This document shows, one piece after another, positions 5,224-58,546 of a DNA stretch of 64,000 bases. Source of the DNA: an uncultured Planctomycetia bacterium (GTDB lineage Bacteria; Omnitrophota; Gorgyraeia; 2-02-FULL-51-18); NCBI GenBank assembly GCA_964373505.1, contig CAYJVC010000004.1, positions 5,916 to 69,915 on the forward strand, in the 5' to 3' direction. The position numbers were made by a program, and so were the translations under genes. The notes under the pieces were generated by a model. The model was given only the letters and a program-made list of their open reading frames with translations. It searched no databases and was not told the DNA's origin. Positions within the stretch are counted from its first letter, which is position 1, and each line of letters opens with the position of its first letter.

Positions 5224-6927
5224 CTAGGCGCTTTTTTTGAGAAGTTTTATGAACTCATTTGCGGCAACGGGTTTGCTGATGAGATACCCCTGGGCCTTGT
5301 CGCATCGGTATTTTTTCAGGATCTCCAGTTGTTCCTGCGTCTCAACGCCCTCCGCGATCACCTCCAGGTTCAGGCTGTGGGCCATCGCGATGATCGCGGT
5401 GACGATCGCGGCGTCACCCGGTTTTTTCGTGAGCTTTCTTACGAAGAGGCGATCGATCTTAAGGATGTCGAGCGGAAAGCGCTTCAAGTGGCTCAGCGAG
5501 GAATAACCGGTGCCGAAGTCGTCGATGGCGATGCGCGCGCCCATTCGTTTTAATTCGCGCAGCGTTTTTGAGATCAGCCGCGTTTTTTTCATCAGCACGT
5601 GCTCACTGAGCTCAAGCTGGATGTTTTCAGCATGCCCGCCCATTTTTTTAAGCAGGTCCTTGAGTTGCTGGATCAAGGGTCCTTCCTCCAGCTGGGGACT
5701 TGAGATATTCACCGAGAGCCTTAAGCCTTGGAACCCCTCCCGGTTCCACAACCTCAGCTCCGAAACGGCGGTTTCGAGCACCCATTCGTTGATGGGGACC
5801 ACGAGACCCGTTTCTTCCGCCAGGGGAATGAACTCCGTCGGCGAGATGAGTCCCAGTTCGGGGTGGTTCCAGCGCACCAGCGCTTCCGCGCCCGTGATGC
5901 GGCCCGTCGCCAGGTCCGCCTGTGGCTGGTAATGGATGCTCAATTCGTTTTTTTCCAGCGCGTGCCGGAGATTGTTCTCCAATCCCAGACGCTCAAGCGC
6001 GTGGGAATTCATGGAGGAGGAATAAAGCTGGCAGCTGTTCCGAGGCAAGTCTTTGGAGCGGTGCATCGCAATATCGGCGTTCTTAACGAGGCTTTCGGCG
6101 TCTTCCCCGTCATCCGGGTAGAGGCTGATACCCGTGCTGATCCCCACGACTATTTCCCTTTGATTGATATAAAAGGGGTCCCTGAAGGAATCGGCAATCT
6201 TATCCGCGATCCCCATGGCTTCGCGGGTGTGCTCGACCAAGTTAAGCAAGATCGTAAATCCGGCCCCCCCGATCCGCGCGACACTGTCGGTTTCCGGAAT
6301 GTCTTTGGTGATGCGCCGTGAGGCCATTTTCAAGAGCTCATTCCCGGCCTCGTGGCCCAGCGTGTCGTTGACCCTTTTGAAATTGTCGAGATCGAGCGAA
6401 AGCACGGCGACGAGGTGATTGCTTCCCCGCGCCTGCGCGATGGCCTGATTCAAACGGTCGATAAATAAGACGCGGCTCGGCATTCCCGTGAGCGGGTCAT
6501 AATATTCGAGGTAGTTGATCTGTTGCCGCAGATTTTCCTGGAACTTCTTTCTTTCCACCGCATGGATGAGACAAATGGCCAGCCTTTCATAGCCTTCGTT
6601 CTTCTTCACCAGGTAATCCTGGGCGCCTTTTCGCATCGCCTCCAGCGCGAGCGCTTCGTCGTCGAGGCTCGAAAGAATGACCATAGGGGCATGGGGTGAG
6701 AGGTCCTGAAGCGCCAGGAATGTGTCGAGGCCGTGGCTGTCGGGCAGGTTGAGGTCCACGATCACCGCATCCGCGCCGCCCTTTTTCAGCGCTTCTTCCG
6801 CGGATTTTAAATGTGACGCCACCTCGATGTTGAAAAGAGCCACAGCGCTCTTCTTCAACGCTTGTTTCACTCGCTGGACATCGTAGCTGTTGTCCTCTAT
6901 GAGAAGTACGGTCAAGGACAGTCCCAT
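5224..6927 (-). CDS. response-regulator receiver domain + degenerate GGDEF (GGAGF) + EAL c-di-GMP phosphodiesterase
   Basis: N-terminal REC domain (LLIEDNSYD...DLNLPD). The GGDEF-like A-site reads RIGGAGF. The EAL domain has EALVRW, DDFGTGYSSL and KIDRLFV motifs. Confidence 0.8.
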   Translation of the reverse strand: MGLSLTVLLIEDNSYDVQRVKQALKKSAVALFNIEVASHLKSAEEALKKGGADAVIVDLNLPDSHGLDTFLALQDLSPHAPMVILSSLDDEALALEAMRKGAQDYLVKKNEGYERLAICLIHAVERKKFQENLRQQINYLEYYDPLTGMPSRVLFIDRLNQAIAQARGSNHLVAVLSLDLDNFKRVNDTLGHEAGNELLKMASRRITKDIPETDSVARIGGAGFTILLNLVEHTREAMGIADKIADSFRDPFYINQREIVVGISTGISLYPDDGEDAESLVKNADIAMHRSKDLPRNSCQLYSSSMNSHALERLGLENNLRHALEKNELSIHYQPQADLATGRITGAEALVRWNHPELGLISPTEFIPLAEETGLVVPINEWVLETAVSELRLWNREGFQGLRLSVNISSPQLEEGPLIQQLKDLLKKMGGHAENIQLELSEHVLMKKTRLISKTLRELKRMGARIAIDDFGTGYSSLSHLKRFPLDILKIDRLFVRKLTKKPGDAAIVTAIIAMAHSLNLEVIAEGVETQEQLEILKKYRCDKAQGYLISKPVAANEFIKLLKKSA

Positions 6928-7019
6928 AGAGCAAGTCTACATTACTGGTTAACCCTTATCAAGATTCAGCTGTTCTAACGTGCTGGAGCGGATTCGCCTC
7001 CGGCGAAGAACCAATACAA

Positions 7020-7094
7020 TGGCGGTGAGTGGATTCGAACCACTGACATGCGATTTATGATACCGCTGCTCTAACCAGGCTGAGCTACACCGCC
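7020..7094 (-). tRNA. tRNA with CAU anticodon (elongator Met or lysidine-modified Ile2; not initiator)
   Basis: 75-nt cloverleaf GGCGGTGTAGCTCAGCCTGGTTAGAGCAGCGGTATCATAAATCGCATGTCAGTGGTTCGAATCCACTCACCGCCA. It has a G1:C72 pair, anticodon loop ATCATAA and an encoded 3' CCA. Confidence 0.8.
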
Positions 7095-10447: not shown

Positions 10448-11698
10448 TCACCATTTTTCAAGAGCGCGAAGCGTTTTTTCGAATTCGCACGCCGTGTGGG
10501 AACCGGAAATGAAGCTCGTTTCAAACGCCGACGGCGGCACGTAAATCCCATATTCTAGCATCTTATGAAAAAATTTCCTGAATTCTTTTCTATCGGTTTT
10601 CATGACATCGCGAAAATGGACCGGTTGCCGAGCGCTGCAAAAGACCGTGAACATGGAGCCGAGGCTTTGGATCACCGCTTTTTTCTTTCGTCTGCGCAGC
10701 AGGACCCTCGCCTCTTTCAGGAAGGCCTTGGCGCTTTGGCCGAGAGCGGCATAGAAGGGCTTCGAGAGCCTGGAAAGCACCGACCGGCCGGCGACCATGG
10801 AAAGAGGGTTGCCCGAAAGCGTCCCCGCCTGATAAACCGGGCCTGCCGGCGAAAGCGCGTTCATGATCTCTTCCCGGCCGCCAAAGGCGCCGACCGGAAG
10901 CCCGCCGCCGATGATCTTTCCGAGTATCGTCAGATCCGGCTCGATGCCGTAGAGGTGTTGCGCGCCGCCGTAGCCGACGCGAAAGCCCGTGATCACCTCA
11001 TCGAAGATGAGAACCGCCCCCGCTTTTTTTGTTTCGCGTCTCAATCGACTCAAAAATTCTTTTTTAGCCGGGACCAGACCCATATTCGCGGCGACGGGTT
11101 CAACGATGGCACAGGCGATGTCCCGCGCGTTTTTAAAAAAGGCGGAGAGCTGGTCGGAATTATTGTATTCGAGCACCGTGGTCAGGCCGGCCAGTTCCTC
11201 CGGAACGCCGGCCGAATCGGGCGAGCCGAAAGTGGCAAGTCCGCTTCCCGCCTTCACGAGCAGGCTGTCGGCGTGGCCGTGGTAGCAGCCTTCGAATTTC
11301 ACGAGCCGCTTTCGGCCGGTGAATCCGCGCGCGAGCCTCACGGCGCTCATGACGGCCTCCGTGCCGGAACTTGTGAACCTTATTTTTTTGAGCGAGCCGA
11401 AGGCTTTTTGGATCTCTTTGGCCAGCGCCGTTTCGTATTCGGTGGCGGTGCCGAAGCTCGTGCCTCTCGAAGCCTGTTCCCGTATCGCTTTTGAAGTTTC
11501 TTCATCGGCATGGCCGAGAAGGATCGCGCCCCAGGACAGGCAATAATCAATGAGGCGTTTTCCGCCGTTGTCGAAGAGATACGGCCCCAGTCCCTGCCGC
11601 ATAAAAACAGGCTCCCCACCGACGGCCCTGAAGGCACGGACGGGGCTGTTGACGCCGCCGGCGATGCACCGCCGGGCTTGGCTCCAGGCGCGGCTCAC
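10448..11698 (-). CDS. hemL: glutamate-1-semialdehyde 2,1-aminomutase
   Basis: 416 aa with GGVNSPVRAF and LIFDEVITGFRVGYGGAQ motifs. It is class III aminotransferase-like and uses a GTG start. Confidence 0.9.
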   Translation of the reverse strand: MSRAWSQARRCIAGGVNSPVRAFRAVGGEPVFMRQGLGPYLFDNGGKRLIDYCLSWGAILLGHADEETSKAIREQASRGTSFGTATEYETALAKEIQKAFGSLKKIRFTSSGTEAVMSAVRLARGFTGRKRLVKFEGCYHGHADSLLVKAGSGLATFGSPDSAGVPEELAGLTTVLEYNNSDQLSAFFKNARDIACAIVEPVAANMGLVPAKKEFLSRLRRETKKAGAVLIFDEVITGFRVGYGGAQHLYGIEPDLTILGKIIGGGLPVGAFGGREEIMNALSPAGPVYQAGTLSGNPLSMVAGRSVLSRLSKPFYAALGQSAKAFLKEARVLLRRRKKKAVIQSLGSMFTVFCSARQPVHFRDVMKTDRKEFRKFFHKMLEYGIYVPPSAFETSFISGSHTACEFEKTLRALEKW

Positions 11699-11814
11699 CC
11701 CACCCCCTGCTTTCTTCCGCCATCCATAGTTTCAATCCCACGATTGGCGGAATGATTCGTCAAAGACGAATCAAAAAATCCGCGGGATTTTTTAGAAGCA
11801 GGGGGTGGGGTCAT
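11695..11814 (-). repeat. family-A palindromic intergenic element (copy a) with 39-aa linker micro-ORF MTPPPASKK...RKQGVG
   Basis: Arms CCCCACCCCCTGCTT / AAGCAGGGGGTGGGG. The micro-ORF ATG overlaps the hemB TGA (ATGA) and its TGA overlaps the hemL GTG (GTGA). Confidence 0.75.
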
Positions 11815-12788
11815 CGCGCCAGCTTCCACCGCACGAGCGCTTTGGCCCAATAACTGATAATGAAATCGGCGCCGGCCCTTTTCAGGGAAAGATGCGTTTC
11901 GTAAACAGTCTTCTTTTCGTCCAGCCATTTTTGCCGCGCGGCGGCTTTGATCATCGCGTATTCACCGCTGACACTGTAGGCGCCGACAGGGCAGCCGAAT
12001 TTGTCCTTGATCCGCCAGAGGATGTCGCCGAAGGCGAGTGCGGGTTTTACGAGGAGCATGTCTGCGCCCTCCTCGAGGTCGGTCTGCGCTTCCCGGAGCG
12101 CTTCGTGGCTGTTGGCAGTGTTCATTTGATAGCTCGAGCGGTCCCCGAACGCGGGCGCGTTTTCAGCCGCGTTACGGAATGGCGCGTAGAAGGAGGAGGC
12201 ATACTTCACGGCATAGGACAGGATCGGTGTGTGCTGAAAGCTGTTTTTATCCAGAGTGCCGCGGATCGCCAGGACTCGCCCGTCCATCATATCGGAGGGC
12301 GCGAGGACATCGGCCCCGGCCCGGGCGTAAGACAGCGCGATCTTAGCGAGTGTCCCCAGCGTCGCGTCGTTGGCGATCCGGCCGTTTTGCAGGTGCCCGC
12401 AGTGGCCGTGGCTTAAATATTCGCATAGGCAAACGTCCGCGAAGATCAGAAGCTTTGAGCACCTTTTTTTGAGAGCGCTTATCGCGCGCTGTACAACCCC
12501 CCTTTTGGCGAAGGCTTGGCGCCCGGCAGCGTCTTTTTTCGCCGGGATGCCGAAGAGGATGATGGAAGAAACCCCCAGCGACTCGAGCCTTGCGGCCTCT
12601 TCGGTCAGCGTCTTCGGGGAGAACTGAAACTGACCGGGCATCGACGGGATCTCCGCGGTCCCCGATAAACTTTCTTTAACAAAAAGAGGCTGGACGAGGT
12701 CCTTGGTGAGAAGCGAATGCTCTTCTATCAGCGCGCGCAGCTTCGGGTTCTCTCGGAGCCTTCTGAGTCGGACGAGCGGGTATTTCAC
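11811..12788 (-). CDS. hemB: porphobilinogen synthase (delta-aminolevulinic acid dehydratase)
   Basis: 325 aa with a typical HemB N-terminus (LRRLRENPKLRALIEEHSL) and active-site lysine region. Confidence 0.9.
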   Translation of the reverse strand: MKYPLVRLRRLRENPKLRALIEEHSLLTKDLVQPLFVKESLSGTAEIPSMPGQFQFSPKTLTEEAARLESLGVSSIILFGIPAKKDAAGRQAFAKRGVVQRAISALKKRCSKLLIFADVCLCEYLSHGHCGHLQNGRIANDATLGTLAKIALSYARAGADVLAPSDMMDGRVLAIRGTLDKNSFQHTPILSYAVKYASSFYAPFRNAAENAPAFGDRSSYQMNTANSHEALREAQTDLEEGADMLLVKPALAFGDILWRIKDKFGCPVGAYSVSGEYAMIKAAARQKWLDEKKTVYETHLSLKRAGADFIISYWAKALVRWKLAR

Positions 12789-20357: not shown

Positions 20358-21518
20358 CTATTTACCCATTCCGACGCGTTGCGCTTGTTGGAATACCTTT
20401 CCCTCGGTGCGAATGGACGGTGCGATGATGAGTTCGGTCAGTTGAAGCTCGCGGATATTGCTCGCGCCGACGTTTCCCATGCAGGTTTGAAGCGCGCCCA
20501 TGAGGTTTTGGCTTCCGTCATCGAGCCTCGCCGGGCCGTAAAGAATTTCTTCCAAGGTTCCCGTGGTGCCCACGTGAATGCGGGTGCCGCGCGGAAGGTT
20601 CGCGTGAGGCGTGGCCATGCCCCAATGAGTGCCGCCGCCCGGCGCTTCCTTGGCCCTCGCGAACGCCGAACCCACCATGACGGCGTCCGAGCCGCAGGCA
20701 AACGCTTTGCAGATATCGCCGCCCGTGCTCATTCCGCCGTCGGCGATGATCGGGACGTATTTTCCGTGTTTTTTATAATAGAAATCGCGCGCGGCCGCCG
20801 CATCGCAAATCGCAGTGACCTGCGGCACGCCCAGTCCTAAGACGCCGCGTGTGGTGCAAGCGGCGCCGGGCCCGATGCCGATGAGAAGGCCCGCGGCTTG
20901 GGTGTCCATAAGTTCGAGTGTGGTCTGGTAGGTCACACAGTTGCCGATGATGACGGGGATCTTTAAGGATCTGCAGAATTTGGCCAGATCAAGAGTCTTG
21001 TATTCCGTTGAAATATGCCGGACCGTCGAGACGGTGGACTGGACGATGAAAATATCGCAGCCGGCGTGCTGCGCAATTTTTCCGAATTCCTGGGCGCGTT
21101 GCGGAATGCTCGATACGCAGGCGACACCGCCCCGTTTTTTGATCTCTTGGATACGTTTTGCGACGAGTTTTTCCCGGACCGGCTGTCGGTAGAGGGACTG
21201 GATGAGGTGGGTAGATTCCTCGAAGTTTGCTCGGGCGATCTTCTTCAAGACTTCGGAAGGATTTTCATACCGCGTTTGCACACCCTCCAGGTTCAGGCAC
21301 GCGACGCCGCCCAGTTTGGACATGCGGACGGCAAAGTTCACATCCACGACGCCGTCCATCGCCGAAGCGATGATCGGCACGCGGAACTTCCTCTTGCCGA
21401 CCTGCCAGGCGGTGTCCACCTCATTGGGGTTGATCGTCACCGAACCGGGCACAAGTGCTATTTCATCAAATCCGTAGCAGCGCCTGGCTTTTCTCCCCCG
21501 TCCCAACCACATCCCCAT
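20358..21518 (-). CDS. IMP dehydrogenase / GMP reductase family protein lacking a CBS pair
   Basis: GFDEIALVPG start and a catalytic loop GIGPGAACTTR; at 386 aa it is too short to contain CBS domains. Confidence 0.7.
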   Translation of the reverse strand: MGMWLGRGRKARRCYGFDEIALVPGSVTINPNEVDTAWQVGKRKFRVPIIASAMDGVVDVNFAVRMSKLGGVACLNLEGVQTRYENPSEVLKKIARANFEESTHLIQSLYRQPVREKLVAKRIQEIKKRGGVACVSSIPQRAQEFGKIAQHAGCDIFIVQSTVSTVRHISTEYKTLDLAKFCRSLKIPVIIGNCVTYQTTLELMDTQAAGLLIGIGPGAACTTRGVLGLGVPQVTAICDAAAARDFYYKKHGKYVPIIADGGMSTGGDICKAFACGSDAVMVGSAFARAKEAPGGGTHWGMATPHANLPRGTRIHVGTTGTLEEILYGPARLDDGSQNLMGALQTCMGNVGASNIRELQLTELIIAPSIRTEGKVFQQAQRVGMGK

Positions 21519-33181: not shown

Positions 33182-34407
33182 GCCTTGTTTGACCTTTCGA
33201 GTTTGAATTTGTTGTGCAAAAGCCGGACCGCTTTTTCAGCCTCGCTTTTTTTGACGACGCAGGAGATCTTGATCTCGCTGGTGGAGATCATCTCGATATT
33301 GATCCTGTTCTTTCCGAGCGTCTCAAACATCGCGGCCGCAACACCCGCATGGCTTCGCATGCCGATGCCGACCACGGAGACCTTTGCGATATTCGGATCG
33401 AGCAGCACTTCTTTTGCGCCGATCTTCTTCGAGGCGGCTTTGAGCGCGTGCACGGCCCGGAGAGCGTCGCCTTTGGGCACCGTGAACGAGATGTCCGTGT
33501 TGAAGGCGGACTTCCCGATATTCTGGATGATCATGTCCACATGGATCCCCTTGTTCGCAAGGGTCTTAAAAATGCCCGCCGCGATGCCGGGCCGGTTGGG
33601 GACGCCTCGCACAGAAATTTTAGCTTCGTTTTTATTTAAAGTTACGCCGCGGATCAATACGTCTTCCATTGAGCTATCCTCCTTCACGATCCATGTGCCT
33701 TCGTTTTTTGTAAAACTGCTCCTGACATGAAGCGGAATATGGTGCTTACCGGCCAACTCGATAGACCGCGACTGCATGACCTGTGCGCCGCTCGAGGCCA
33801 TTTCCAGCATCTCCTCATAACTGATCTTCCGGATTTTCCTGGCTTTTTTCACAAGGCGCGGGTCCGTGGTGAATATTCCCTCGACATCCGTGTAGATCTC
33901 GCAGGCGTCGGCCTCCAGCGCCTTTGCAAGCGCAACCGCGGTTAGGTCGCTGCCGCCGCGGCCGAGTGTGGTGATGTCATTTTGCGGGTTGACTCCTTGA
34001 AAGCCCGCCACGATCACAACCTTCTTATTCTTAAGCTCCCGTAAAATACGTTGGGTATTGATATGGCGGATGCGCGCGCAGGTGTGCGCGGGGCTTGTGC
34101 GAATGCCCACCTGCCAGCCCGTAAATGAAACAGCCGCGCTCCCGAGCTTCTCGAGCGCCATCGCCAGAAGCGCCATGGAGACCTGCTCCCCCGTGGACAT
34201 CAGAACATCGAGTTCCCGCTCGGAAGGTTTTCGTGTGATCCGGGAAGCGAGCCCCAAAAGTTCGTCCGTCGTGTCGCCCAACGCACTCACCACGACCACG
34301 AGGCGGTGCCCTTTTTTTCGGGTGTCATCGATCCGGCGGGCGACATTTTTGATCCGGTCGGGATTTGCGACGCTTGAGCCGCCGAATTTCTGCACGATCA
34401 GTTTCAT
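33178..34407 (-). CDS. lysC: aspartate kinase
   Basis: MKLIVQKFGGSSVANPDRIKNVA start and C-terminal ACT domains. The track ORF includes a 15-aa extension that is really the family-A element. Confidence 0.9.
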   Translation of the reverse strand: MKLIVQKFGGSSVANPDRIKNVARRIDDTRKKGHRLVVVVSALGDTTDELLGLASRITRKPSERELDVLMSTGEQVSMALLAMALEKLGSAAVSFTGWQVGIRTSPAHTCARIRHINTQRILRELKNKKVVIVAGFQGVNPQNDITTLGRGGSDLTAVALAKALEADACEIYTDVEGIFTTDPRLVKKARKIRKISYEEMLEMASSGAQVMQSRSIELAGKHHIPLHVRSSFTKNEGTWIVKEDSSMEDVLIRGVTLNKNEAKISVRGVPNRPGIAAGIFKTLANKGIHVDMIIQNIGKSAFNTDISFTVPKGDALRAVHALKAASKKIGAKEVLLDPNIAKVSVVGIGMRSHAGVAAAMFETLGKNRINIEMISTSEIKISCVVKKSEAEKAVRLLHNKFKLERSNKA

Positions 34408-34490
34408 CCCACCACCTCTTTTCGAGGCGGCATAGCCGCCTCCGCGTGACAAACTGAAATTGAAAATTTCAAAAGAGGGGGTGGGGTCAT
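34404..34490 (-). repeat. family-A palindromic element (copy b) with 28-aa micro-ORF MTPPPLLKFSISVCHAEAAMPPRKEVVG
   Basis: Arms CCCACCCCCTCTTTT / AAAAGAGGTGGTGGG. Its ATG overlaps the apgM TGA and its TGA overlaps the lysC ATG (ATGA at both ends). Confidence 0.75.
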
Positions 34491-35632
34491 TTCAAAAAAT
34501 GCTCCATGAGCGGGTGTCCTTCAGGGAATTGAAGTTTGCTTTGAGCCGCCGTTTTTTCGTTGAAGCCCGGGTGCTTTTCCGCGGCGAATCCGTGCCCCGC
34601 GATGAGGAACGGCACCGGCCCGTGAGCAGCCGAACGGCTCGCGGAGGATGTCGCCGTGTCCGTGCAAACGAGCAAACGGTGATCCCCCAGGTTTTCCAGG
34701 CACTTCGTGGCAATTCCCACAACCTGCGCATCAAAGCGTTCGATCAGACGAATTTTTGTTTTCCAGGGATCGGTTTCGGGTTGTACCTGGTCTGCGGCCA
34801 TGTACACGAACGTGAGTTCATGGTTTCGGAGCGCCTTTTCAAGGTCGTCGACGACCTTGAAACCCAGGGACAGTCCGAGCCCCTTGGCAAAATCAGCCTG
34901 AGAAAATACGGCGCCGTCCACGCCAAAGCGATCCTTGAAACGGGGAAGCCGGGGCCGGCGGCCCTGCCCCCAGGGCCAGATCATGTTCGCCGGATTTTCC
35001 CCGAGGTCTATCCTGACCCGGTTGATCTCATGGTGCTCCAGAACGGTCTTGGATTTTTCCATGAGACTTGTGATGACCTCGGCGTCTTCCCCCTTCGGGA
35101 GCACCTTGGCCATTTTCTGACCGATCGCCCGTGAAGGCGGAACGCACTCCAGCTCATCGAGACTTTCGGCCTTTTCAGGGTCACGGATCATCAGGATATT
35201 TTTGTAGCCTTCTCTCGGATAGAACTTGATCTGCGGGCTTGAGAGTTTTTTATTGAGTTCCTCGATCAAGAGTGAGGACTCCTCGGGCGGAATGAAGCCT
35301 GCGCTTACATCTGCCAGAAGCCCGTCCGAAACCGTGACAAGGTCGCAGCGGAACGCGATCTCATTGTCGTCCTGGGAGATACCGGCTGCGGCGGCCTCAA
35401 GCGGCGCAACCCCCGTGTAAAATTCTTCCGGAGGGTAACCCAGAATGGCCATCGCCGCGACGTCGCGTGTTAGGGCCAATTTAGGCGACGTGAAGATCGC
35501 CGAACCCACACGGCCTTTTTTTGCCAATTGATGCAAAAATGGGGCTTTTGCCAGTTCCATCGGCGTGCGGCCGCCCAGAGCCTCGACCGGATCGTCCGTG
35601 GCCGCTTCGCAAACCAACACCGCGTATTTCAC
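34487..35632 (-). CDS. cofactor-independent phosphoglycerate mutase (archaeal ApgM type); by context a candidate non-orthologous homoserine kinase
   Basis: 381-aa ApgM-family protein that starts with GTG. It is embedded between lysC and thrC with hom upstream, and no classical thrB is present in the block. Confidence 0.6.
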   Translation of the reverse strand: MKYAVLVCEAATDDPVEALGGRTPMELAKAPFLHQLAKKGRVGSAIFTSPKLALTRDVAAMAILGYPPEEFYTGVAPLEAAAAGISQDDNEIAFRCDLVTVSDGLLADVSAGFIPPEESSLLIEELNKKLSSPQIKFYPREGYKNILMIRDPEKAESLDELECVPPSRAIGQKMAKVLPKGEDAEVITSLMEKSKTVLEHHEINRVRIDLGENPANMIWPWGQGRRPRLPRFKDRFGVDGAVFSQADFAKGLGLSLGFKVVDDLEKALRNHELTFVYMAADQVQPETDPWKTKIRLIERFDAQVVGIATKCLENLGDHRLLVCTDTATSSASRSAAHGPVPFLIAGHGFAAEKHPGFNEKTAAQSKLQFPEGHPLMEHFLK

Positions 35633-35715
35633 CCCATCCCCTCTTTCTGAGGCGCCAACGGCGCCTCGGCGTTGTACGCTGAAATTGAAAAATTCAAAAG
35701 AGGGGATGGGGTCAT
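35629..35715 (-). repeat. family-A palindromic element (copy c) with micro-ORF MTPSPLLNFSISAYNAEAPLAPQKEGMG
   Basis: Arms CCCCATCCCCTCTTTT / AAAGAGGGGATGGGG. It makes an ATGA overlap with the thrC stop and a GTGA overlap with the apgM-like start. Confidence 0.75.
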
Positions 35716-41506: not shown

Positions 41507-43309
41507 TTAGGACTCGATCTTTAAAGCGGCCAGGAATGCCTCTTGTGGGATCTCCACTTTGCCGAACTGTTTCATGCGCTTCTTGCCCTCTTTCTGCTTT
41601 TCCCACAGCTTGCGTTTTCTCGTGATGTCGCCGCCGTAGCATTTGCTCGTGACGTTTTTTCCCATGGGCCTTACGGATTCGCGCGCGATGATCTTTCCCC
41701 CGATCGCGGCCTGGATGACCACCTCGAACATCTGCCTGGGGATGAGCTCCTTTAGTTTTTCGCAGAGCGCGCGGCCCTTTGTTTGGGCCTTATCGTGATG
41801 CACCATGGAACTGAACGAATCGCAGATCTCCGAGTTGATGAGGATGTCGAGTTTCACGACGTCACTATCCCGGTGCCCCTTCACCTCGTAGTCCAGCGAG
41901 CCGTAACCCTTCGAAATGGATTTGACGCGGTCATAGAAATCAACGATGATCTCGGCCAGCGGAAAGTCATAGATCACTTTGACCCTCTCCTCGTCGATAT
42001 GCTCGGTGGAAATGTACCGACCGCGGCGTTGCTCGCAGAGCTCAAAGATCGCGCCGATGCAATTTTGGGGAATGAGGATGGCGGCATGTACGAACGGCTC
42101 AAGGATTTCCCGGACCTGGCTCGGATCCGGCATCTTGGAAGGATTGTCCACTTCAACGAGGTTTCCGTCTAACTTCCGCACCTTGTAGACGACGCTGGGC
42201 GTGGTGATGACGAGACTCATGCCATATTCGCGCTCCAGTCTTTCCTGCACGATCTCCATATGGAGAAGTCCGAGGAATCCGCACCGGAAGCCAAACCCGA
42301 CGGAAGCCGAGTTTTCTATTTCATAAACGAACGAGGAGTCGCTCAAGGACAGTTTTTCTATCGAGTCCTTCAGCGCCTGGAAATCCGCAGAGTTGACCGG
42401 ATAAATGCCGGCAAACACGAGCGGGCGGATCTTCTTGTAACCCGGGAGCGCTTCCTCCGTCGGACTCAGCGCGTCCGTGACGGTGTCCCCGTTTTCCACC
42501 TCTTTTGCGTTTCGGATGTTGCAAGAGACATAGCCGACTTCGCCGGGCCCGAGGGATTCACAAGCTGTAGGTTTGGGCGTCAGGTTGCCGATGCCCAACA
42601 CATCGTAGGTTTTCCCCGCGGCCAGCATCTTTATTTTCATGCCCTTTTTCAGGACCCCGTTGAACACACGAACGTACACGATCACGCCCTGGTATGCGTC
42701 GTACTGGGAGTCAAAAATAAGCGCCTGAAGCTTTTTAGCCGGGTCCCCTTCCGGCGGCGGGATCACCTCCACCACCCGATCCAGGATTTGGGTGATGCCG
42801 GTCCCCATCTTGGCGCTGGCGAGCAGGATCTCATGCTCGTCGATTCCGAGATATTTGTGGATCTGTTTTTTTACCTTTTCCGGTTCGGCCGTGCCGAGGT
42901 CTATCTTATTGATGACGGGAATGATCTCGAGGTCATTCTCCATCGCCAGGTACAGATTGGCCACGGTTTGCGCCTCGACGCCCTGACCGGCGTCCACAAG
43001 AAGCAGCGCCCCCTCGCAGGCGCGCAGGGACTTGGCGACCTCGAACGTGAAGTCCACGTGGCCCGGCGTGTCGATCAGGTTGAGCGTGTAGTTCTTGCCG
43101 TCTTTTTTGGAATGATAATTGATCTTGACCGCGCTCGCCTTGATCGTGATGCCGCGCTCCTGCTCCAGCGCCATATCGTCCAGGAGCTGGTTGTGGAATG
43201 TGCGGCTGTCAATGGCGCCGGTGTGCTCGAGGATACGGTCGGCTAGCGTGGACTTGCCGTGATCGATATGCGCGATGATCGAAAAATTACGGATATGCGC
43301 CTGCCTCAT
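41507..43309 (-). CDS. lepA: elongation factor 4
   Basis: 600 aa with a GTPase start IRNFSIIAHIDHGKSTLADR and a LepA C-terminal domain. Confidence 0.95.
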   Translation of the reverse strand: MRQAHIRNFSIIAHIDHGKSTLADRILEHTGAIDSRTFHNQLLDDMALEQERGITIKASAVKINYHSKKDGKNYTLNLIDTPGHVDFTFEVAKSLRACEGALLLVDAGQGVEAQTVANLYLAMENDLEIIPVINKIDLGTAEPEKVKKQIHKYLGIDEHEILLASAKMGTGITQILDRVVEVIPPPEGDPAKKLQALIFDSQYDAYQGVIVYVRVFNGVLKKGMKIKMLAAGKTYDVLGIGNLTPKPTACESLGPGEVGYVSCNIRNAKEVENGDTVTDALSPTEEALPGYKKIRPLVFAGIYPVNSADFQALKDSIEKLSLSDSSFVYEIENSASVGFGFRCGFLGLLHMEIVQERLEREYGMSLVITTPSVVYKVRKLDGNLVEVDNPSKMPDPSQVREILEPFVHAAILIPQNCIGAIFELCEQRRGRYISTEHIDEERVKVIYDFPLAEIIVDFYDRVKSISKGYGSLDYEVKGHRDSDVVKLDILINSEICDSFSSMVHHDKAQTKGRALCEKLKELIPRQMFEVVIQAAIGGKIIARESVRPMGKNVTSKCYGGDITRKRKLWEKQKEGKKRMKQFGKVEIPQEAFLAALKIES

Positions 43310-43392
43310 GCGGGTTTCACCCCACCCTCTGATCGGCTCATCTTTGATGAACCGATCGCTCTAAGATCGTTGCGATCAGGCGGTGGGGTCAT
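43306..43392 (-). repeat. family-A palindromic element (divergent copy d) with micro-ORF MTPPPDRNDLRAIGSSKMSRSEGGVKPA
   Basis: Arms CCCCACCGCCTGATCG / CGATCAGAGGGTGGGG. It makes ATGA overlaps with the phosphohexomutase stop and with the lepA ATG. Confidence 0.7.
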
Positions 43393-44819
43393 TTCAGGCT
43401 GAACGCGAGCTCTTTCCCGTCCTTCACGAGCGCTTCCGCCAGTTCCCGGGAAGTTGCCTCGGAATAAATCCTCAAAAGGGGCTCGGTGCCGGAGAGGCGG
43501 AAAAGAAGCCAGCTGTCGTCCTGGAGTATGAACTTCATCCCGTCCCGGCTCTTGATCTCCTTGATGCGTTGATCTTTGAGCTCCTTGGGGGGATGGGTTC
43601 TCAGGTGTTGAAAAAGCTTGGGTTTAAGCTCATTCGGATACGCCAGATCATTGCGGACATAATAGAGTTTTCCATATTCCTTCTCGACGCCGCTCAATAT
43701 TTCCTCGAAACTCTGCTTCCTCATAGCCATCATTTCAATCAGCAAAAGCGCCGACAGCATGCCGTCGCGCTCATACAGATAATCCTGGAAGCCGATCCCG
43801 CCCGATTCCTCCCCGCCGATCAAAACATTCTCGCGGCGCATGATCTCGCAGATGTATTTGAAGCCGATGGGCGTTTCGTGGATCGTGAGGTTCAGTTTCC
43901 TGGCCACTTTATAGATGAGCGCCGTGTTGGAGATGGTCGTGACGACGCTTCCTCTCCTTTTCAGGTCTTCCACAAAATGGATCATGATGAGTGACAGGAG
44001 CGTGCCGGGTGTGACAAACTCCCCGCCGGGACGGACCGCGCCGATGCGGTCCGCATCGCCGTCCGTTACGACCGCCAGATCAAATTCCCTGTTTCTCATG
44101 CGTTCGATCGTCTCCGGAATGTTCCGGGGGATGGGCTCGGGATTAAGGCCGCCGAACGTGATGTCCCGCTCGCCGCGCGTGGTCGTGACCCTGATCTTGC
44201 CGCCGCTCAGGATATTTTCAATATGACCGTCGCCTGCGCCGTGCATGGAGTCGACCAGAATCTTGAACGGCGCTTGCTTTAGCATGTCCATCCGCACATA
44301 TTTTTTGACGAACGCGAGGTACTTTTCGTTGAGATTTTCCACTCTCGGATTTTCGCCGGAAAAAGGCGTTTTTTTGACGGTGTTCTTCCCTAACAGCTTT
44401 TCCACGGCATCCGTGAGGGCCTTGTCGGCAGAGCCGCCGAAGTCCGTTTTGATCTTGATGCCGTTGTAGTCCGGCGGGTTATGGCTGGCCGTCACGGCGA
44501 TCCCCGCATCGCACTTACGGTCGACGATCGTGAAGCTGATGGCCGGCGTCGGGCAAGCTTGATCGGAAAGAAGGACATCAATGTTGTTCGCGATCAACAC
44601 TTCGGTGAAGGTTTTCGCGAAATTTTCTGAATTTTTGCGCGTGTCATAGCCGACCGCGACCTTCGGCCGCAGCGCAACCGACGGGTGCTTCAAGTTTTCG
44701 TTCAAGAAATCGCCGAACGCCTGAGCGACGAGCTCCACATTTTCGAACGTAAATTCTTTGTCCATGAGCGCGCGCCAGCCGTCAGTGCCGAATTTTATAA
44801 CTGAGGCGCCCGCGCTCAT
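43389..44819 (-). CDS. phosphoglucomutase/phosphomannomutase family protein
   Basis: Active-site loop TASHNPPDYNGIK and a metal-binding DGDADR motif. Confidence 0.85.
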   Translation of the reverse strand: MSAGASVIKFGTDGWRALMDKEFTFENVELVAQAFGDFLNENLKHPSVALRPKVAVGYDTRKNSENFAKTFTEVLIANNIDVLLSDQACPTPAISFTIVDRKCDAGIAVTASHNPPDYNGIKIKTDFGGSADKALTDAVEKLLGKNTVKKTPFSGENPRVENLNEKYLAFVKKYVRMDMLKQAPFKILVDSMHGAGDGHIENILSGGKIRVTTTRGERDITFGGLNPEPIPRNIPETIERMRNREFDLAVVTDGDADRIGAVRPGGEFVTPGTLLSLIMIHFVEDLKRRGSVVTTISNTALIYKVARKLNLTIHETPIGFKYICEIMRRENVLIGGEESGGIGFQDYLYERDGMLSALLLIEMMAMRKQSFEEILSGVEKEYGKLYYVRNDLAYPNELKPKLFQHLRTHPPKELKDQRIKEIKSRDGMKFILQDDSWLLFRLSGTEPLLRIYSEATSRELAEALVKDGKELAFSLK

Positions 44820-48151: not shown

Positions 48152-48938
48152 GGATGGCCTTTGCGAACGGGCGCACAAATTTTTTTGCGAACGCCTCGGC
48201 GTTCAAATGAAGATGCGCGGCCAGCGTGTTTACCAGGGCGCTGCCTACGATGACGCCGTCGGCGATCTTTGACACCTGCTTCGCACGGGCAGGATCTGAG
48301 ACGCCGAAACCCACGCACACCGGGAGTGCCGTCATTTTCTTGATAGCGGAAATATTTTTACGGACGCTCTCCGTCACAAGGTGATGGGCGCCGGTTACGC
48401 CGGTCAGGGAAACGTAGTAAATAAAACCCCTCGAGGCTCCTACGATAAGCCGGCGCCGTGCCCCGGTGCTTGTGGGCGCCAAAAGATACACCAGGTCCAC
48501 GCCGTTCCTGCGCATGAGCGCGCGGATGTCTTTTTCCTCGTCCGGCGGTAGGTCCGGCACTATCAAACCGTCCACGCCGGAGTCGCGCGCGGCCTTCGCG
48601 AAATGAGCCGGGCCCATCGCGAGGATCGGATTGAGATAGCTCATGAGGAGGATCGGGGTGCTTGATTTCCTGCGGGCTTTTTTCACAAGCGCTAAAATTT
48701 TACGCAGCGTCGTGTGTCGCTTGAGCGACCGGTTGGAAGCCTCCTGGATGACGGGCCCGTCCGCCAAGGGGTCTGAAAAAGGCACCCCCAGCTCAATGAG
48801 GTCCACCCCCGCCTTCTCCAATGTGCCGATCAACTCCCCGGTCATTTTGAGGCTTGGGTCGCCGGCCGTGATAAAAACGACAAGCGCCTTTTTCCCTTCC
48901 TTTTTCAGCGCTTTGAATTTTTTTTCTATACGATTCAC
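48144..48938 (-). CDS. trpA: tryptophan synthase alpha chain
   Basis: 264 aa that starts with GTG and is typical of TrpA (LVVFITAGDPSL...). Confidence 0.9.
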   Translation of the reverse strand: MNRIEKKFKALKKEGKKALVVFITAGDPSLKMTGELIGTLEKAGVDLIELGVPFSDPLADGPVIQEASNRSLKRHTTLRKILALVKKARRKSSTPILLMSYLNPILAMGPAHFAKAARDSGVDGLIVPDLPPDEEKDIRALMRRNGVDLVYLLAPTSTGARRRLIVGASRGFIYYVSLTGVTGAHHLVTESVRKNISAIKKMTALPVCVGFGVSDPARAKQVSKIADGVIVGSALVNTLAAHLHLNAEAFAKKFVRPFAKAIHD

Positions 48939-49021
48939 CCCACCCCCTCCTTTTGAGACAACGATGTTGTCTCAATGCTATGCATCAAAATTGAAAATTT
49001 TAAAGGAGGGGGTGGGGTCAT
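48935..49021 (-). repeat. family-A palindromic element (copy e) with micro-[31 protein letters not shown]
   Basis: Arms CCCCACCCCCTCCTTT / AAAGGAGGGGGTGGGG. It makes an ATGA overlap with the trpB stop and a GTGA overlap with the trpA start. The AAGGAGG Shine-Dalgarno site lies in the 3' arm. Confidence 0.8.
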
Positions 49022-50223
49022 AGATGCAAAACCTTTGAAACGCTTTCCATGTCTTTGTCGCCCCGTCCCGAGAGGCAAACCACGATCACTTCTTTCTTTT
49101 TAAAGCGTGATTTGTGTTTGGCCAGATACCCGAACACGTGCGCGGTTTCAAGCGCCGGAATGATGCCCTCGGTTTGGCTTAAAATTTTCATCCCCAAGAG
49201 CGCTTCCTTGTCGGTCGCCGATACGTATTCCGCGCGGCGGATCTTTTTCAGGTACGCATGTTCAGGGCCTACGCCGGGATAGTCGAGACCCGCCGAGATC
49301 GAGTGCGCGAGTTTCACCTGTCCGTCCCGGTCCTGCAACACCTCGCTTTTTGACCCGTGCAGGACGCCGATCTTGCCCAAAGACAGTGTCGCCGAATGGC
49401 GGTCCGTGCCCAGGCCATGGCCTGCCGCCTCCACACCGATAAGTTTCGTTCTGCTTTTAAGGAAAGGATAAAAAAGGCCGATGCTGTTCGACCCGCCGCC
49501 CACGCAGGCGATGCAGGTGTCGGGCGAACGAACCCCCAGAGGCCTTAACTGCGCAATCGTCTCTTTTCCGATCACCGATTGAAAATCCCTCACCATCACG
49601 GGGTACGGATGAGGCCCGATCACCGAGCCAATAATGTAATGCGTGTCCTTCACATGAGTGACCCAGTCGCGGATCGCCTCGTTCACGGCGTCTTTCAAGG
49701 TCCGCGAGCCGGATCTTACAGGGATCACGCGCGCGCCGAGGAGTTTCATGCGGAATACGTTGAGCGCCTGCCGCTCGATGTCCACCTGCCCCATGTAAAC
49801 ATCGCAGGGAATACCGAAAAGAGCGCACACGGTCGCGGTCGCAACGCCATGCTGCCCGGCTCCCGTTTCGGCGATCACGCGCTTTTTGCCCATGCGAAGC
49901 GTCAAAAGCGCCTGCCCAATCGTGTTGTTGATCTTGTGGGCGCCGGTGTGGAGAAGGTCCTCCCGCTTAAGATAGACTTTTTTCACGCCGAGATATTCGG
50001 CCAGGTGCCGGGCTTCGGTGAGCGCAGTCGGGCGACCGGCAAAATTCCTCAGGTAATGGCTGACTTCCTTTTTGAATTTCGGATCGAGCCGAGTGCTCCG
50101 GTAAGCTTTCTCAAGCTCTTCCAGCGCGGCCATCAAGGTTTCGGGCACGTACTTCCCTCCGTACGGCCCGAAGTGGCCGCGCGAGTCCGGAACTTTGGTT
50201 CGGCGGTTACGCTGATCTGGCAT
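49018..50223 (-). CDS. trpB: tryptophan synthase beta chain
   Basis: 401 aa with a PLP-binding region HTGAHKINN. Confidence 0.95.
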
Positions 50224-50920
50224 TTTGGATGAATTCTTTCAAAAGTTCATGGTCCTTGATCCCCGGGCGCTTTTCCACGCCGCTCGAGACGTCCACGCCG
50301 TAGGGTGAAAGTGTCTGAATGGCTTTCCGGACGTTGCTGGGACGAAGCCCCCCTGAAATAATCACTGGTTTTAGTCGATCTCGAAGGTCACGGGTCCTGC
50401 CGCTCCGAGAGCCCATTTTTTGCAAGTGTTTCCCTTGCAAAAAATGGGCGCCCCTCTCCGCGTCACCCGTGACCTTCGAGATCTCGGCTGACAACATTTT
50501 CCAATTGAAATTTTGCCCGCTTCCTCCGTATCGGCCTGTTACTTGTGTGTCAAATAAATAGGCGTCCGCGGGAAAGCCGAGAAGATTTTCCAAATGAAAC
50601 CCTTCATCGACGCGAAAAGCCTTTATGACTTTACAACAACGGAGCTTTTTTGTATAGGCCCGGGTTTCGTCCCCGTGAAGCTGCACCGCGCTTAAGCCGC
50701 AGAGCCGGGCTATCATCTCCACTTTCCTGGGGTTTTCGTTCACGAAAACCCCCACCGTCGTGACAAAGGGTCCGAGTTTTCCTATGATCTCTTGTGCCCT
50801 TTTTGGGGTCAGCCGCCGCGGGCTTTTGGCGAATACGAACCCGAGCGCGTCGGCCCCACACCCAAGTGCGGCGCGCGCGTCGGGCAAATTCGTGATCCCG
50901 CAGATCTTAACCCTGACCAT
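50207..50920 (-). CDS. trpF: phosphoribosylanthranilate isomerase carrying an in-frame ~37-aa insertion derived from a family-B palindromic element
   Basis: VKICGIT...[16 protein letters not shown] then an extra [36 protein letters not shown] before the conserved PVIISGGL. Confidence 0.8.
50377..50487 (-). repeat. family-B palindromic element (copy B2) inserted in-frame within trpF
   Basis: CGATCTCGAAGGTCACGGGTCCTGCCGCTCCGAG...CGCGTCACCCGTGACCTTCGAGATCTCG with ~20-bp perfect inverted arms. Length is a multiple of 3. Confidence 0.75.
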
Positions 50921-52717: not shown

Positions 52718-53286
52718 TATTGGGTCAGACGGAGGAAATTTTTCAGGATCTCTTTGCCGGACTGCGTCAGGATGGATTCAGGATGGAACTGGACTCCGTA
52801 AACCGGGTATCGTTTGTGTTGAAGGCCCATGATCTCCTTTTCCCGGGTCTCGGCCGTGATCTCCAGCTCTTTCGGCAGGCTTTTTCTTTCGACCAAAAGC
52901 GAGTGGTACCTTGTACCGATGAACGGATTATCGATATTTTTGAAGATCCCCTTCCCGGTGTGGTGAATCCGCGAGGTTTTTCCGTGCATGAGCCTGGCCG
53001 CACCCACCACTTTTCCGCCGTAGGCTTCGCCTATGCACTGATGCCCCAGGCAGACGCCGAGGATCGGGACCTTGTCGCCGAGCTTTTGGATGATCTGGAG
53101 GGAAATGCCGGCCTGCTTCGGGTTGCCGGGGCCCGGCGAGATCACGATGCGGCTTGGTTTCATTTTTTTGATCCGGGGTATCGTGATTTCGTCATTCCTG
53201 AAAATTTTAAGTTCCTGCCCCATTTCGCCCAGGTACTGCACGAGGTTATAAGTGAACGAGTCATAATTGTCGATCATCAGGATCAC
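52717..53286 (-). CDS. trpG: anthranilate synthase component II (glutamine amidotransferase)
   Basis: [18 protein letters not shown]...GVCLGHQ. I place the start at GTG, overlapping the micro-ORF TGA; the track ORF reads on into the repeat. Confidence 0.85.
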
Positions 53287-53438
53287 CCCATCCCCTCCTT
53301 TTGAGACGACATTGCCCCATCCCCCGTTTGAATGATTGCTTCGCAATCAGTTCGCGGAGCGAACCAAACAGGGGATGGGGTTGTCGTCCCAATGCTTTGC
53401 ATAAGAATTGAAAATTCTAAAGGAGGGGATGGGGTCAT
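53283..53438 (-). repeat. family-A element (copy f) with nested internal duplicate; 51-aa micro-ORF MTPSPPLEFSILMQSIGTTTPSPVWF...SSQKEGMG
   Basis: Outer arms CCCCATCCCCTCCTTT / AAAGGAGGGGATGGGG plus an inner CCCCATCCCCTGTTTG / CAAACGGGGGATGGGG pair. ATGA overlap with the trpE stop and GTGA overlap with the trpG start. Confidence 0.75.
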
Positions 53439-56271: not shown

Positions 56272-56984
56272 ACTTGAATAGCTTCTTTTAGCGTGAATTT
56301 GTTCTCATAAAGCGCTTTGCCTATCACGACCCCCCGGATGTTCTTTTTCTTGAGTTTCATCAGCGCTTCGAGGTCCTTCAGCGAACTCACGCCCCCGGAG
56401 GCGATAAGGTCGAGGTTCACGGCTTCACTGGCGTTTTTTATCTCTTTGATGTTCAACCCGGAAAGAGCCCCGTCCTTTGAAATATCCGTGTAGATCACGG
56501 TTTGCCCGCCGAGCTTTTCAAATTCTTTGATGAATTGGACGGCATTTATTTTTGTGACCTTTGTCCAGCCGTCCGTCGCGATGAGCCCGTCCCGTGCATC
56601 GACGCCGATGATCGCCTTCTCCTTAAGCTCGGACACGAGCTCTTTTATGAATCCTCTGTCGAGACACGCCTGGGTGCCGAAAATGACCCACCCGGCGCCC
56701 ATCGCCAGATACCTAGCCGCGGTTTGGAGGCTGCGGATGCCGCCTCCCACCTCGACCGGGGTCCGCACGGCGTTTAAGATCCGCTCGATCGTCTTTATGT
56801 TTTTCGGCTCGCCTTTCAGCGCCCCGTCCAGGTCCACCACGTGGATCCTGGACGCCCCCTCCTCTTCAAAGCGCCTGGCGATATCTTCCGCCTTTTCCGA
56901 ATAGATCTTTTCGGCCTTGAAGTCTCCTTGGAAAAGACGGACAACCTTACCGTCCTTGAGGTCGATCGCGGGGATAGGGATCAC
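56253..56984 (-). CDS. hisA: 1-(5-phosphoribosyl)-5-[(5-phosphoribosylamino)methylideneamino]imidazole-4-carboxamide isomerase
   Basis: Starts with GTG: (M)[16 protein letters not shown]... Confidence 0.9.
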
Positions 56985-57067
56985 CCCGCCCCCTCTTTCC
57001 GAGGCGCCAGCGGCGCCTCGACGTTGCAGGTTGAAATTAAAAATTTTGAAAGAGGGGGTGGGGTCAT
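56981..57067 (-). repeat. family-A palindromic element (copy g) with micro-[31 protein letters not shown]
   Basis: Arms CCCCACCCCCTCTTTC / GAAAGAGGGGGCGGGG. Its ATG lies 6 nt after the hisH TAG stop and its TGA overlaps the hisA GTG. Confidence 0.75.
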
Positions 57068-57688: not shown

Positions 57689-57828
57689 TCGACAAACCAG
57701 TCTGGATTCGACGGGTCCTGCCGCTGCGGCAGCCCCAATGGTTCCCGCGTCACTGCGGAGCGCTGCGAGCGAATGGGGCGCCCCGCCTCCGCGTCACCCG
57801 TCGAATCCAAAATCTCTGCGAAAATCAT
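57685..57828 (-). repeat. family-B palindromic element (copy B3) filling the hisB-hisH gap, spanned by a 47-aa linker ORF MIFAEILDSTGDAEAG...NPDWFVE
   Basis: Arms GATTCGACGGGTCCTGCCGC / CGCGTCACCCGTCGAATC. The linker ATG overlaps the hisB TGA (ATGA) and the linker TGA overlaps the hisH ATG (ATGA). Confidence 0.7.
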
Positions 57829-58451: not shown

Positions 58452-58546
58452 GTCAGCCCCGTTTTTTCACCCCATCCCCTATTTCGTGACGCAAAGCGTC
58501 ACCTTTTGATTTGCTTTGCAAATCAAGAAATAGGGGATGGGGTCAT
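58452..58546 (-). repeat. family-A palindromic element (degenerate copy h); micro-ORF truncated to MTPSPIS
   Basis: Arms CCCCATCCCCTATTTC / GAAATAGGGGATGGGG with a different internal loop. ATGA overlap with the hisD stop. hisB uses its own ATG 20 nt downstream. Confidence 0.65.

Follow-up and report, generated by a model that had tools for sequence, protein, structure and literature searches.

The 64,000-nucleotide stretch analysed here (the window; contig CAYJVC010000004.1 of assembly GCA_964373505.1) carries all of its long open reading frames (ORFs) on the minus strand. Between two of them, a phosphohexomutase gene and lepA, lies the short hairpin-forming element that is the subject of this report. 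Read on the minus strand, the junction runs ATGA-CCCCACCGCC...GAGGGTGGGG-TGA-AACCCGC-ATGA, or in full ...CTG AAA TGA / CCCCACCGCCTGATCGCAACGATCTTAGAGCGATCGGTTCATCAAAGATGAGCCGATCAGAGGGTGGGG / TGA AACCCGC ATG AGG... (coordinates in Table 1). The phosphohexomutase matches TIGR03990 and TIGR01455 under their cut-offs in a profile search, and the named relatives of the protein are Candidatus Omnitrophica. The left ATG (43392-43390) overlaps the phosphohexomutase stop (43391-43389) and is made of the final A of a Lys codon and the TG of that stop, while the right ATGA is the lepA ATG (43309-43307) plus the first base of an Arg codon, so that neither is the relic of an overlapping gene pair. The micro-ORF spanning the element ends on the TGA within lepA's ATGA. 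The feature is most probably a non-autonomous hairpin transposon of 69 bp whose insertion is recent and lineage-specific, a miniature inverted-repeat transposable element, or MITE, of what is here called subfamily B, and whose translational coupling features were kept by a selective filter. Subfamily B would fall within a set of Omnitrophota MITEs with common CCCCAYCCCC / GGGGRTGGGG terminal inverted repeats.

Folded as RNA, the target stretch reaches -40.6 kcal/mol (z = -5.05 against dinucleotide shuffles), a value equalled by none of 200 shuffles, and the motif ATGACCCCACCGCC, with up to 3 mismatches allowed, occurs 18 times in the window and 6.5 +/- 2.5 times in shuffles. The predicted structure is a three-way junction, with a 16-bp outer stem (P1), a junction of 2-3 nt and two inner hairpins (P2 and P3). 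The two mismatches in the target's outer stem are adjacent and, along with the degraded apex of P2, indicate some decay. A chance palindrome or an assembly artefact, suggested by nothing beyond the small size of the feature, is scarcely credible in view of this z-score, of a covariance-model E-value of 1e-16, and of the identical insertion in independent assemblies. Assemblies L028 and L030, from other sequencing runs and with an identical phosphohexomutase, carry an identical insertion region of 79 nt behind the stop. In L029, a further independent assembly with an identical phosphohexomutase, the contig ends 7 nt after the stop. The breaking of short-read contigs at elements, seen in L029 and again in L035, is consistent with a high copy number.

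The gene order trp genes ... rpe-phosphohexomutase-lepA-lepB is kept in relatives, and five of the six phosphohexomutase>lepA junctions compared are empty. They read TAA gtc ATG in L031 (81% protein identity), TGA + 8 nt + ATG in L032 (75%), a 4-nt ATGA overlap in L033 (73%), TAG + 12 nt + ATG in L034 (71%) and TAA + 6 nt + ATG in L036 (74%). The sixth, L035 (78%), carries an element of another subfamily, family A, at lepA's own ATGA (TAG gcc ATGA-CCCCACCATCTCTTTTAAAATTTCCAATTTT...), and its contig ends within that element; with B at the target and family A in L035, this junction has been struck independently by two subfamilies. The ancestor of the target can be reconstructed, on comparison of these sequences, as AAA TGA AACCCGC ATG, in which a 7-nt spacer would separate a plain stop from the lepA start. 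The element is inserted at the phosphohexomutase TGA stop and duplicated the TGA, the left copy of which still stops the upstream gene. The ATGA-to-ATGA layout described in the first-pass annotation is present, but its origin is an insertion at a plain TGA stop lying 7 nt upstream of lepA and not a pre-existing overlap.

At four other junctions, trpB>trpA, thrC>apgM, apgM>ask and trpE>trpG, clean pairs of empty and filled sites are also found: the site is empty in L031 or L034, and in the window it is filled with a CCCC...GGGG core bounded by duplicated TGA. At thrC, for example, L034 reads ...TTA TGA AATAT, the thrC stop overlapping the next ATG, and the window reads ...CTA TGA [core] TGA AATAC. 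At all four the downstream start is ATG when the site is empty and GTG when it is filled, since G is the last base of the element. Both B copies of locus L001 are likewise absent from its closest relative, L038.

TGA/TGA flanks are found at the target and at each intercistronic copy examined, and an unbiased hairpin scan of 12 loci gave 20 strict hairpins with identical 3-nt flanks, 13 of them TGA in gene orientation. That the TGA might be carried by the element itself was considered and rejected on account of B copies nested in larger elements, which lack TGA flanks. Three of these were examined, and two have other direct repeats, CAA/CAA and TTG/TTG, which argues that the TGA is a genuine 3-bp duplication rather than a piece of the element. 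At hisH>hisA the TGA belongs to the ATGA start of hisA and is not a stop, so that what recurs is the sequence (N)TGA rather than its role. A transposase of the IS5/IS1031 type, which makes a 3-bp TNA duplication, was also considered, and the TTG/CAA flanks do not fit it. At trpE>trpG, window 53282-53438 and L032 1287-1442 both hold a family-A element, and the same hairpin loop of each contains a nested B. Its orientation is opposite in the two (CAA/CAA against TTG/TTG flanks), either by inversion of a palindromic stem or through two independent insertions, and the outer arms differ in a compensating manner, CCCCATCCCC against CCCCACCACC.

The first-pass annotation had taken the element for a mutated family-A copy with a different loop. 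This part has to be revised: the target belongs to a separate subfamily, B (66-69 nt), and is not a decayed family-A copy. Only the terminal arms, CCCCAYCCCC/GGGGRTGGGG, are shared with family A, and the interior of B is its own conserved three-way junction. The first homologues (L001 and L020) came from an arm-pattern scan of one genome per species, and 10 distinct B copies have now been collected, five stand-alone (the target, two in L001, and those of L020 and L039) and five nested in larger elements (among them window 53315-53380, two in L032, and one in L037). Beyond the window, they lie at five loci in four other Omnitrophota assemblies. A covariance model built on a 7-sequence alignment of B matches the target on the minus strand with 77.3 bits (E = 1.2e-16) and on the plus strand with 27.4 bits, and the match in L028 scores the same as the target. 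The target is 80-81% identical to both L001 copies and 59% identical to the B copy within its own genome.

The same three-way junction is the optimal fold in seven of the eight copies folded, a set that includes the 73-nt B-like hisD>hisB element. In the target it lies within 0.8 kcal/mol of the optimum (-36.6 versus -37.4), its GATCG repeats permitting an alternative fold. Across the alignment, 94.1% of cells are paired and 12 of the 30 pairs show changes on both sides; neither the paired fraction nor the covariation score was reached by any of 500 shuffles, and slid-partner controls pair at 32-48%. The 16-nt terminal arms pair at 15-16 positions in the other copies, against 14 in the target. 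Sharing of B across phyla was entertained at one point, since the record of L001 (CAYJSE010000053.1) has the title 'uncultured Planctomycetia bacterium' and the L001 PgsA shares only 33% identity with a PgsA-like protein of the window. It was rejected on finding that the L001 RimO is closest to Omnitrophota proteins, some of them encoded on the same contigs as the phosphohexomutase matches; the 33% PgsA identity is probably a comparison between paralogues, and the taxon label of L001 looks unreliable given the affinity of its RimO. On these sequence affinities all confirmed B copies are here treated as Omnitrophota, and no cross-phylum claim is made.

A stable fold, compensatory changes in its stems and a computed occlusion of the ribosome-binding site (RBS) are also what would be expected of a host-selected cis-regulatory RNA that was never a selfish insertion, and which might set the phosphohexomutase:lepA ratio, stabilise the upstream mRNA or serve as an RNase processing site. 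Control of re-initiation by stable structures directly behind stop codons has been reported (PMC7518266). This explanation is nevertheless unlikely, as the junction is empty in five relatives and holds a different element in the sixth, and the same type of element stands between unrelated gene pairs. Copies of B occur, moreover, in both orientations relative to transcription: four of the stand-alone copies are sense and one is reversed (L039), and one nested copy is sense and four are reversed. A fixed orientation relative to genes, also considered for B, was rejected on these grounds. G.U and A.C mismatches in the B stems are about equally frequent, six each by hand count, which also argues against selection on RNA. 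All of this fits a palindromic DNA transposon with a generic hairpin RNA, not a sequence-specific one. An A-like copy in L037 also appears flipped.

No element matched Rfam at gathering or E-value thresholds, the only hits being two tRNAs and a weak AsrC match inside the lepA coding sequence. The latter (window 43233-43296, plus strand) is sub-threshold, with 23.6 bits against a gathering score of 111, lies antisense to the 5' coding region of lepA, and most likely reflects conservation of the lepA coding sequence rather than an RNA gene. No promoter-like or terminator-like site is present at the elements. A B-specific pattern scan of a metagenome collection returned only the L020 contig, the corresponding viral scan returned nothing, and blastn of the target against plasmids and phages gave no match.

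Besides the target, the window has seven other intercistronic hairpin elements with the ends ATGA-CCCCAYCCCC...GGGGRTGGGG-TGA and a ninth element nested in one of these eight, so that there are 9 elements in 64 kb, with cores of 66-149 nt (Table 1). Eight of the 18 xTGA-type junctions are occupied, and 10 xTGA overlaps are free of elements.

Table 1. Features of the target junction and positions of the hairpin elements in the window.
Feature	Position	Strand	Remarks
Target stretch between phosphohexomutase gene and lepA	43306-43392	-	87 bases
Phosphohexomutase (PGM/PMM family), upstream gene	43389..44819	-	476 aa; PGM_PMM Pfam domains
lepA (elongation factor 4), downstream gene	41507..43309	-	TIGR01393, 932 bits
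Phosphohexomutase TGA stop, left copy of 3-bp target-site duplication	43389..43391	-	single stop at empty sites of relatives
Subfamily-B hairpin core, 69 nt, CCCC...GGGG	43320..43388	-	arms CCCCACCGCC.. and ..GAGGGTGGGG; covariance-model match
Outer stem P1, 5' arm CCCCACCGCCTGATCG	43373..43388	-	14/16 pairs with 43320-43335
Inner hairpin P2 (CGATC..GATCG)	43353..43369	-	apex degraded in target copy
Inner hairpin P3 (GGTTCATC-AAA-GATGAGCC)	43336..43352	-	compensatory changes between copies
Outer stem P1, 3' arm CGATCAGAGGGTGGGG	43320..43335	-	G-rich, Shine-Dalgarno-like
Duplicated TGA, right copy	43317..43319	-	
AACCCGC, putative original 7-nt spacer from phosphohexomutase stop to lepA start	43310..43316	-	from comparison with empty junctions of relatives
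28-codon micro-ORF MTPPPDRNDLRAIGSSKMSRSEGGVKPA (MTPPPDRND...KPA)	43306..43392	-	AUGA at upstream stop to AUGA at lepA start
hemB>hemL element	11694..11814	-	same arms; 113-nt core
apgM-like gene>aspartate kinase element	34404..34490	-	family A
thrC>apgM-like gene element	35628..35715	-	family A
trpB>trpA element	48934..49021	-	family A
trpE>trpG element	53282..53438	-	family A; 149-nt composite core
Nested B copy in GC-hairpin loop of trpE>trpG family-A element	53315..53380	+	77.0 bits on plus strand; flanks CAA/CAA; opposite to gene orientation
hisH>hisA element	56980..57067	-	family A; in ATGA of hisA start, 6 nt after hisH TAG stop
hisD>hisB element	58466..58546	-	B-like architecture; 73-nt core

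Six of the eight window sites fall within trp, his or thr operons, which would recommend an amino-acid-responsive attenuator or leader-peptide element were it not that the elements are intercistronic instead of standing in leaders, have no terminator-like hairpin with a U-run and no regulatory codon runs, and are found at hemB>hemL, phosphohexomutase>lepA, rimO>pgsA, pstA>pstB and dut>ftsK as well. Attenuation can thus be given almost no credence. The census behind this statement takes in 64 kb of the source genome and about 150 kb from relatives, in which elements were seen at rimO>pgsA, pgsA>pgpA, pstA>pstB and dut>ftsK; it did not show an exclusive association with amino-acid biosynthesis operons. 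The first-pass annotation had already held that the family extends outside the trp, his and thr operons and has the role of a mobile element or coupling cassette rather than of an amino-acid attenuator, and both views are borne out by the many classes of flanking genes, the empty orthologous junctions and the lack of any terminator-like site. Its remark that the micro-ORFs are not rich in Trp, His or Thr codons is equally sound, no runs of such codons being found in those of the window.

The elements have features that bear on translation. In family A the G-rich 3' arm reads AAAGGAGGGGGTGGGGTGA, which by the 3' tail of 16S rRNA we take to be a canonical Shine-Dalgarno sequence followed by GTG, and the 5' arm carries the complementary CCTCCTTT. 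The 3' arm in general brings a Shine-Dalgarno-like sequence and, for most copies, a GTG start as well, and the duplicated TGA keeps the upstream stop; at the target, the 3' arm of P1 and the following TGA form GGGGTGA, the end of which is 7 nt before the lepA ATG. The computed cost of opening the RBS is 30-38 kcal/mol in free mRNA for family-A copies and 7-12 with a ribosome on the upstream stop; the corresponding values are 18.5 and 11.0 kcal/mol for the target (lepA), and 9-12.5 and 0 kcal/mol for unoccupied overlaps.

Of 20 elements tabulated from several families, 19 have no stop in the frame that the left xTG opens. The stops total 2 for frame 1, 15 for frame 2 and 23 for frame 3, and the 73-nt hisD>hisB copy, whose downstream gene has a separate start, accounts for both of those in frame 1. 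Core length is 0 or 2 mod 3 in 19 of the 20. In the nine with 2 mod 3, the micro-ORF terminates on the TGA overlapping the GTG start, and in the ten with 0 mod 3, including the target, the left xTG is in frame with the GTG. In the target, this frame runs through the GTG and stops three codons on, at lepA's AUGA. Micro-ORFs from ATGA to (G/A)TGA are present in six of the eight window elements. The open-frame pattern points to the survival of elements only where translational coupling is kept. In L001 (1296-1313), rimO is out of frame with the left TGA, continues past it and ends at a TGA within the element's CCTGATCG, the element thereby supplying the last four codons of rimO and its stop.

One might suppose instead, from a frame 1 that is stop-free in nearly all elements and an overlapping AUGA start, that the 28-codon micro-ORF encodes a functional small peptide (MTPPP...). 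This is very improbable: the copies differ in ways that follow the nucleic-acid stems and change the peptide radically (IGSSKMSRS versus DRFASANQS), and the nested and flipped copies yield unrelated peptides. Searches of 1.8 and 5.8 billion proteins revealed no family, and a doubled-peptide profile search of the micro-ORF found nothing at E <= 10. The sole match in the search of representative proteins, P0121, was dismissed as a repeat protein with a chance YTPPPYRNDLEA match.

From these features a mechanism can be proposed. The element would be co-transcribed with the rpe-phosphohexomutase-lepA-lepB string and fold as a stable three-way junction. The GGGGUGA of its 3' arm would act as the Shine-Dalgarno sequence of lepA and be hidden by the C-rich 5' arm, so that lepA translation would stay dependent on ribosomes coming from the upstream gene. 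Either a ribosome halting at the left UGA would melt the 5' arm, or re-initiation at the overlapping AUG would allow the 28-codon stop-free frame to be translated through the hairpin up to the UGA overlapping the lepA AUG. Inside operons, only insertions preserving a stop, an RBS, a start and an open frame would persist; we consider a host-evolved function less likely than such a selective filter. Ribosome-mediated unfolding and termination-reinitiation find general support in the literature (PMC6728339, PMC4538824, PMC7518266).

Several points weigh against insertion of a MITE retained by such a filter. At the target, a terminating ribosome relieves the occlusion in part only, a computed 11 kcal/mol being left, and spacer length alone would give an in-frame stop at lepA's ATGA with a probability of about 1 in 3. 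Everything said of translation, including re-initiation on the micro-ORF and melting of the stem by a terminating ribosome, is inferred. One nested B copy, L032 4996-5062, is without a direct repeat, and the uniform TGA flanks of the intercistronic copies could reflect selection as much as target choice. No transposase or autonomous partner with CCCCAYCCCC-type inverted repeats was found in about 370 kb examined, and the census spans the 64 kb and roughly 150 kb given above rather than whole genomes.

Rickettsia palindromic elements (RPEs) are palindromic repeats that are still translatable once inserted. The target element differs from them in lying between genes and not inside one, and has no sequence relation to them.

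In how the element works, its closest analogue is the mycobacterial interspersed repetitive unit (MIRU). MIRUs, like the present elements, are repeats of 40-100 bp that sit in operons and are transcribed in polycistronic mRNA. In both, small ORFs overlap the neighbouring stop and start with their ends, sites are empty in some species and filled in others, the flanking direct repeats are short, and the GC-rich inverted repeats, terminal as well as internal, are imperfect (Delihas 2011, PMC3184786). The direct repeat is 3 bp (TGA) here and a tetranucleotide in MIRUs. The present elements also have a long, perfect outer stem enclosing a three-way junction and a host in the phylum Omnitrophota, and the window shows no tandem variable-number arrays, the one TGA-sharing tandem being that of L026. 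No sequence relation to MIRUs is known, the likeness being one of layout.

Like MITEs such as Nezha and Correia, the elements are small, are present in many copies, lack a transposase gene, have terminal inverted repeats and a target-site duplication, and are predicted to form a stable hairpin; their sites are likewise polymorphic, empty or filled (PMC3184786). In the present case, terminal inverted repeats, a flanking duplication, empty and filled orthologous sites, and small multi-copy units lacking a transposase gene were all found. They differ from MITEs generally in that their flanks are consistently TGA at stop or start codons and that they supply a Shine-Dalgarno sequence together with a GTG start and keep one frame open. 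There is also some resemblance to repetitive extragenic palindromic sequences (REPs) and to their paired form, the REP doublets forming hairpins (REPINs), which are mobilised by REP-associated tyrosine transposases (RAYTs): these too are short GC-rich extragenic palindromes in transcribed intergenic regions, paired inverted units of which give a long hairpin. REPs, however, are headed by GTAG or CGTC (PMC3733652), and the elements here begin CCCCAYCCCC; REPINs are without target-site duplication, and no RAYT gene was seen in the sequence examined.

The layout likewise resembles known translational coupling, in which an RBS-hiding structure is opened by an upstream ribosome and stop and start overlap (PMC4538824, PMC6728339, PMC7518266). 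The difference is that here the structure and its signals appear to be delivered ready-made by a mobile element. In the limited library searched, which makes this weak evidence of absence, no account was found of TGA-flanked hairpin elements in Omnitrophota or Planctomycetes, nor of MITEs that rebuild a stop, Shine-Dalgarno sequence and start.

A possible trace of an autonomous parent was met in L037 (GCA_964374005.1). At hisH>hisA (20706-20872), the GC-hairpin loop of an A-like element holds part of a GIY-YIG domain, its N-terminal half (PF01541, E = 3e-6, profile positions 2-36 of 78), which shares its frame with the left GTG and with the terminal GTGA. This might be a remnant of such a parent, and is only a lead. 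One tentative idea, which we hold to be improbable, is that the hairpin elements arose by deletion from a tiny autonomous cassette which targets NTGA stop/start junctions for insertion and is expressed through the translational coupling of the host operon, its gene perhaps being a GIY-YIG nuclease. If true, the stop-free frame 1 and the cores of 0 or 2 mod 3 would be adaptations of a selfish gene to life between cistrons. Immediately before the same element, at 20680-20705, a solo sequence like a 3' arm forms the C-terminal codons of hisH.

Family D, seen in L037 at 11968-12078 (pgsA>pgpA) and 6920-7030 (dut>ftsK), has unrelated inverted repeats, CCCGTTAGACTCCT / AGGAGTCTAACGGG, together with TGA...TGA flanks and TAAGGAG plus an ATG or GTG start in its 3' arm; its frame 1 is open by reading of the sequence. 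In the window, a 107-nt hairpin of yet another family, GGGTGACGCGGAG...GCGGCAGGACCCG, with 50-nt arms, lies in frame within the trpF ORF (50377-50483, minus strand, in 50207-50920). It accounts for about 33 residues that the L034 orthologue lacks and resembles an RPE-like coding insertion. A second GGGTGACGCGGAG / GCGGCAGGACCCG copy occupies the hisB>hisH gap (57703-57809) without TGA...TGA flanks. In L026 (4227-4320), a second 5' arm, CCCCACCCCC, begins immediately behind the right TGA, which suggests tandem elements sharing one TGA. Perfect palindromes with the same CCCCACCCCC/GGGGGTGGGG outer arms, and with other interiors and flanks, are also found in Anaerolineae (L002, L008, L011-L013, L016, L018, L021 and L025) and in Bacteroidota (L004, L007, L014 and L023).

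Repeats landing between tightly coupled genes should usually do harm by breaking stop/start overlaps. Elements that restore the stop, the Shine-Dalgarno sequence, the start and an open frame would be a natural example of mobile DNA colonising operon interiors densely. They fragment Omnitrophota genome assemblies, mislead gene callers on starts, giving N-terminal extensions such as MTPPPDRND..., and could be mistaken for attenuators or riboswitches. If their inferred behaviour is confirmed, they may also serve as ready-made coupling modules.

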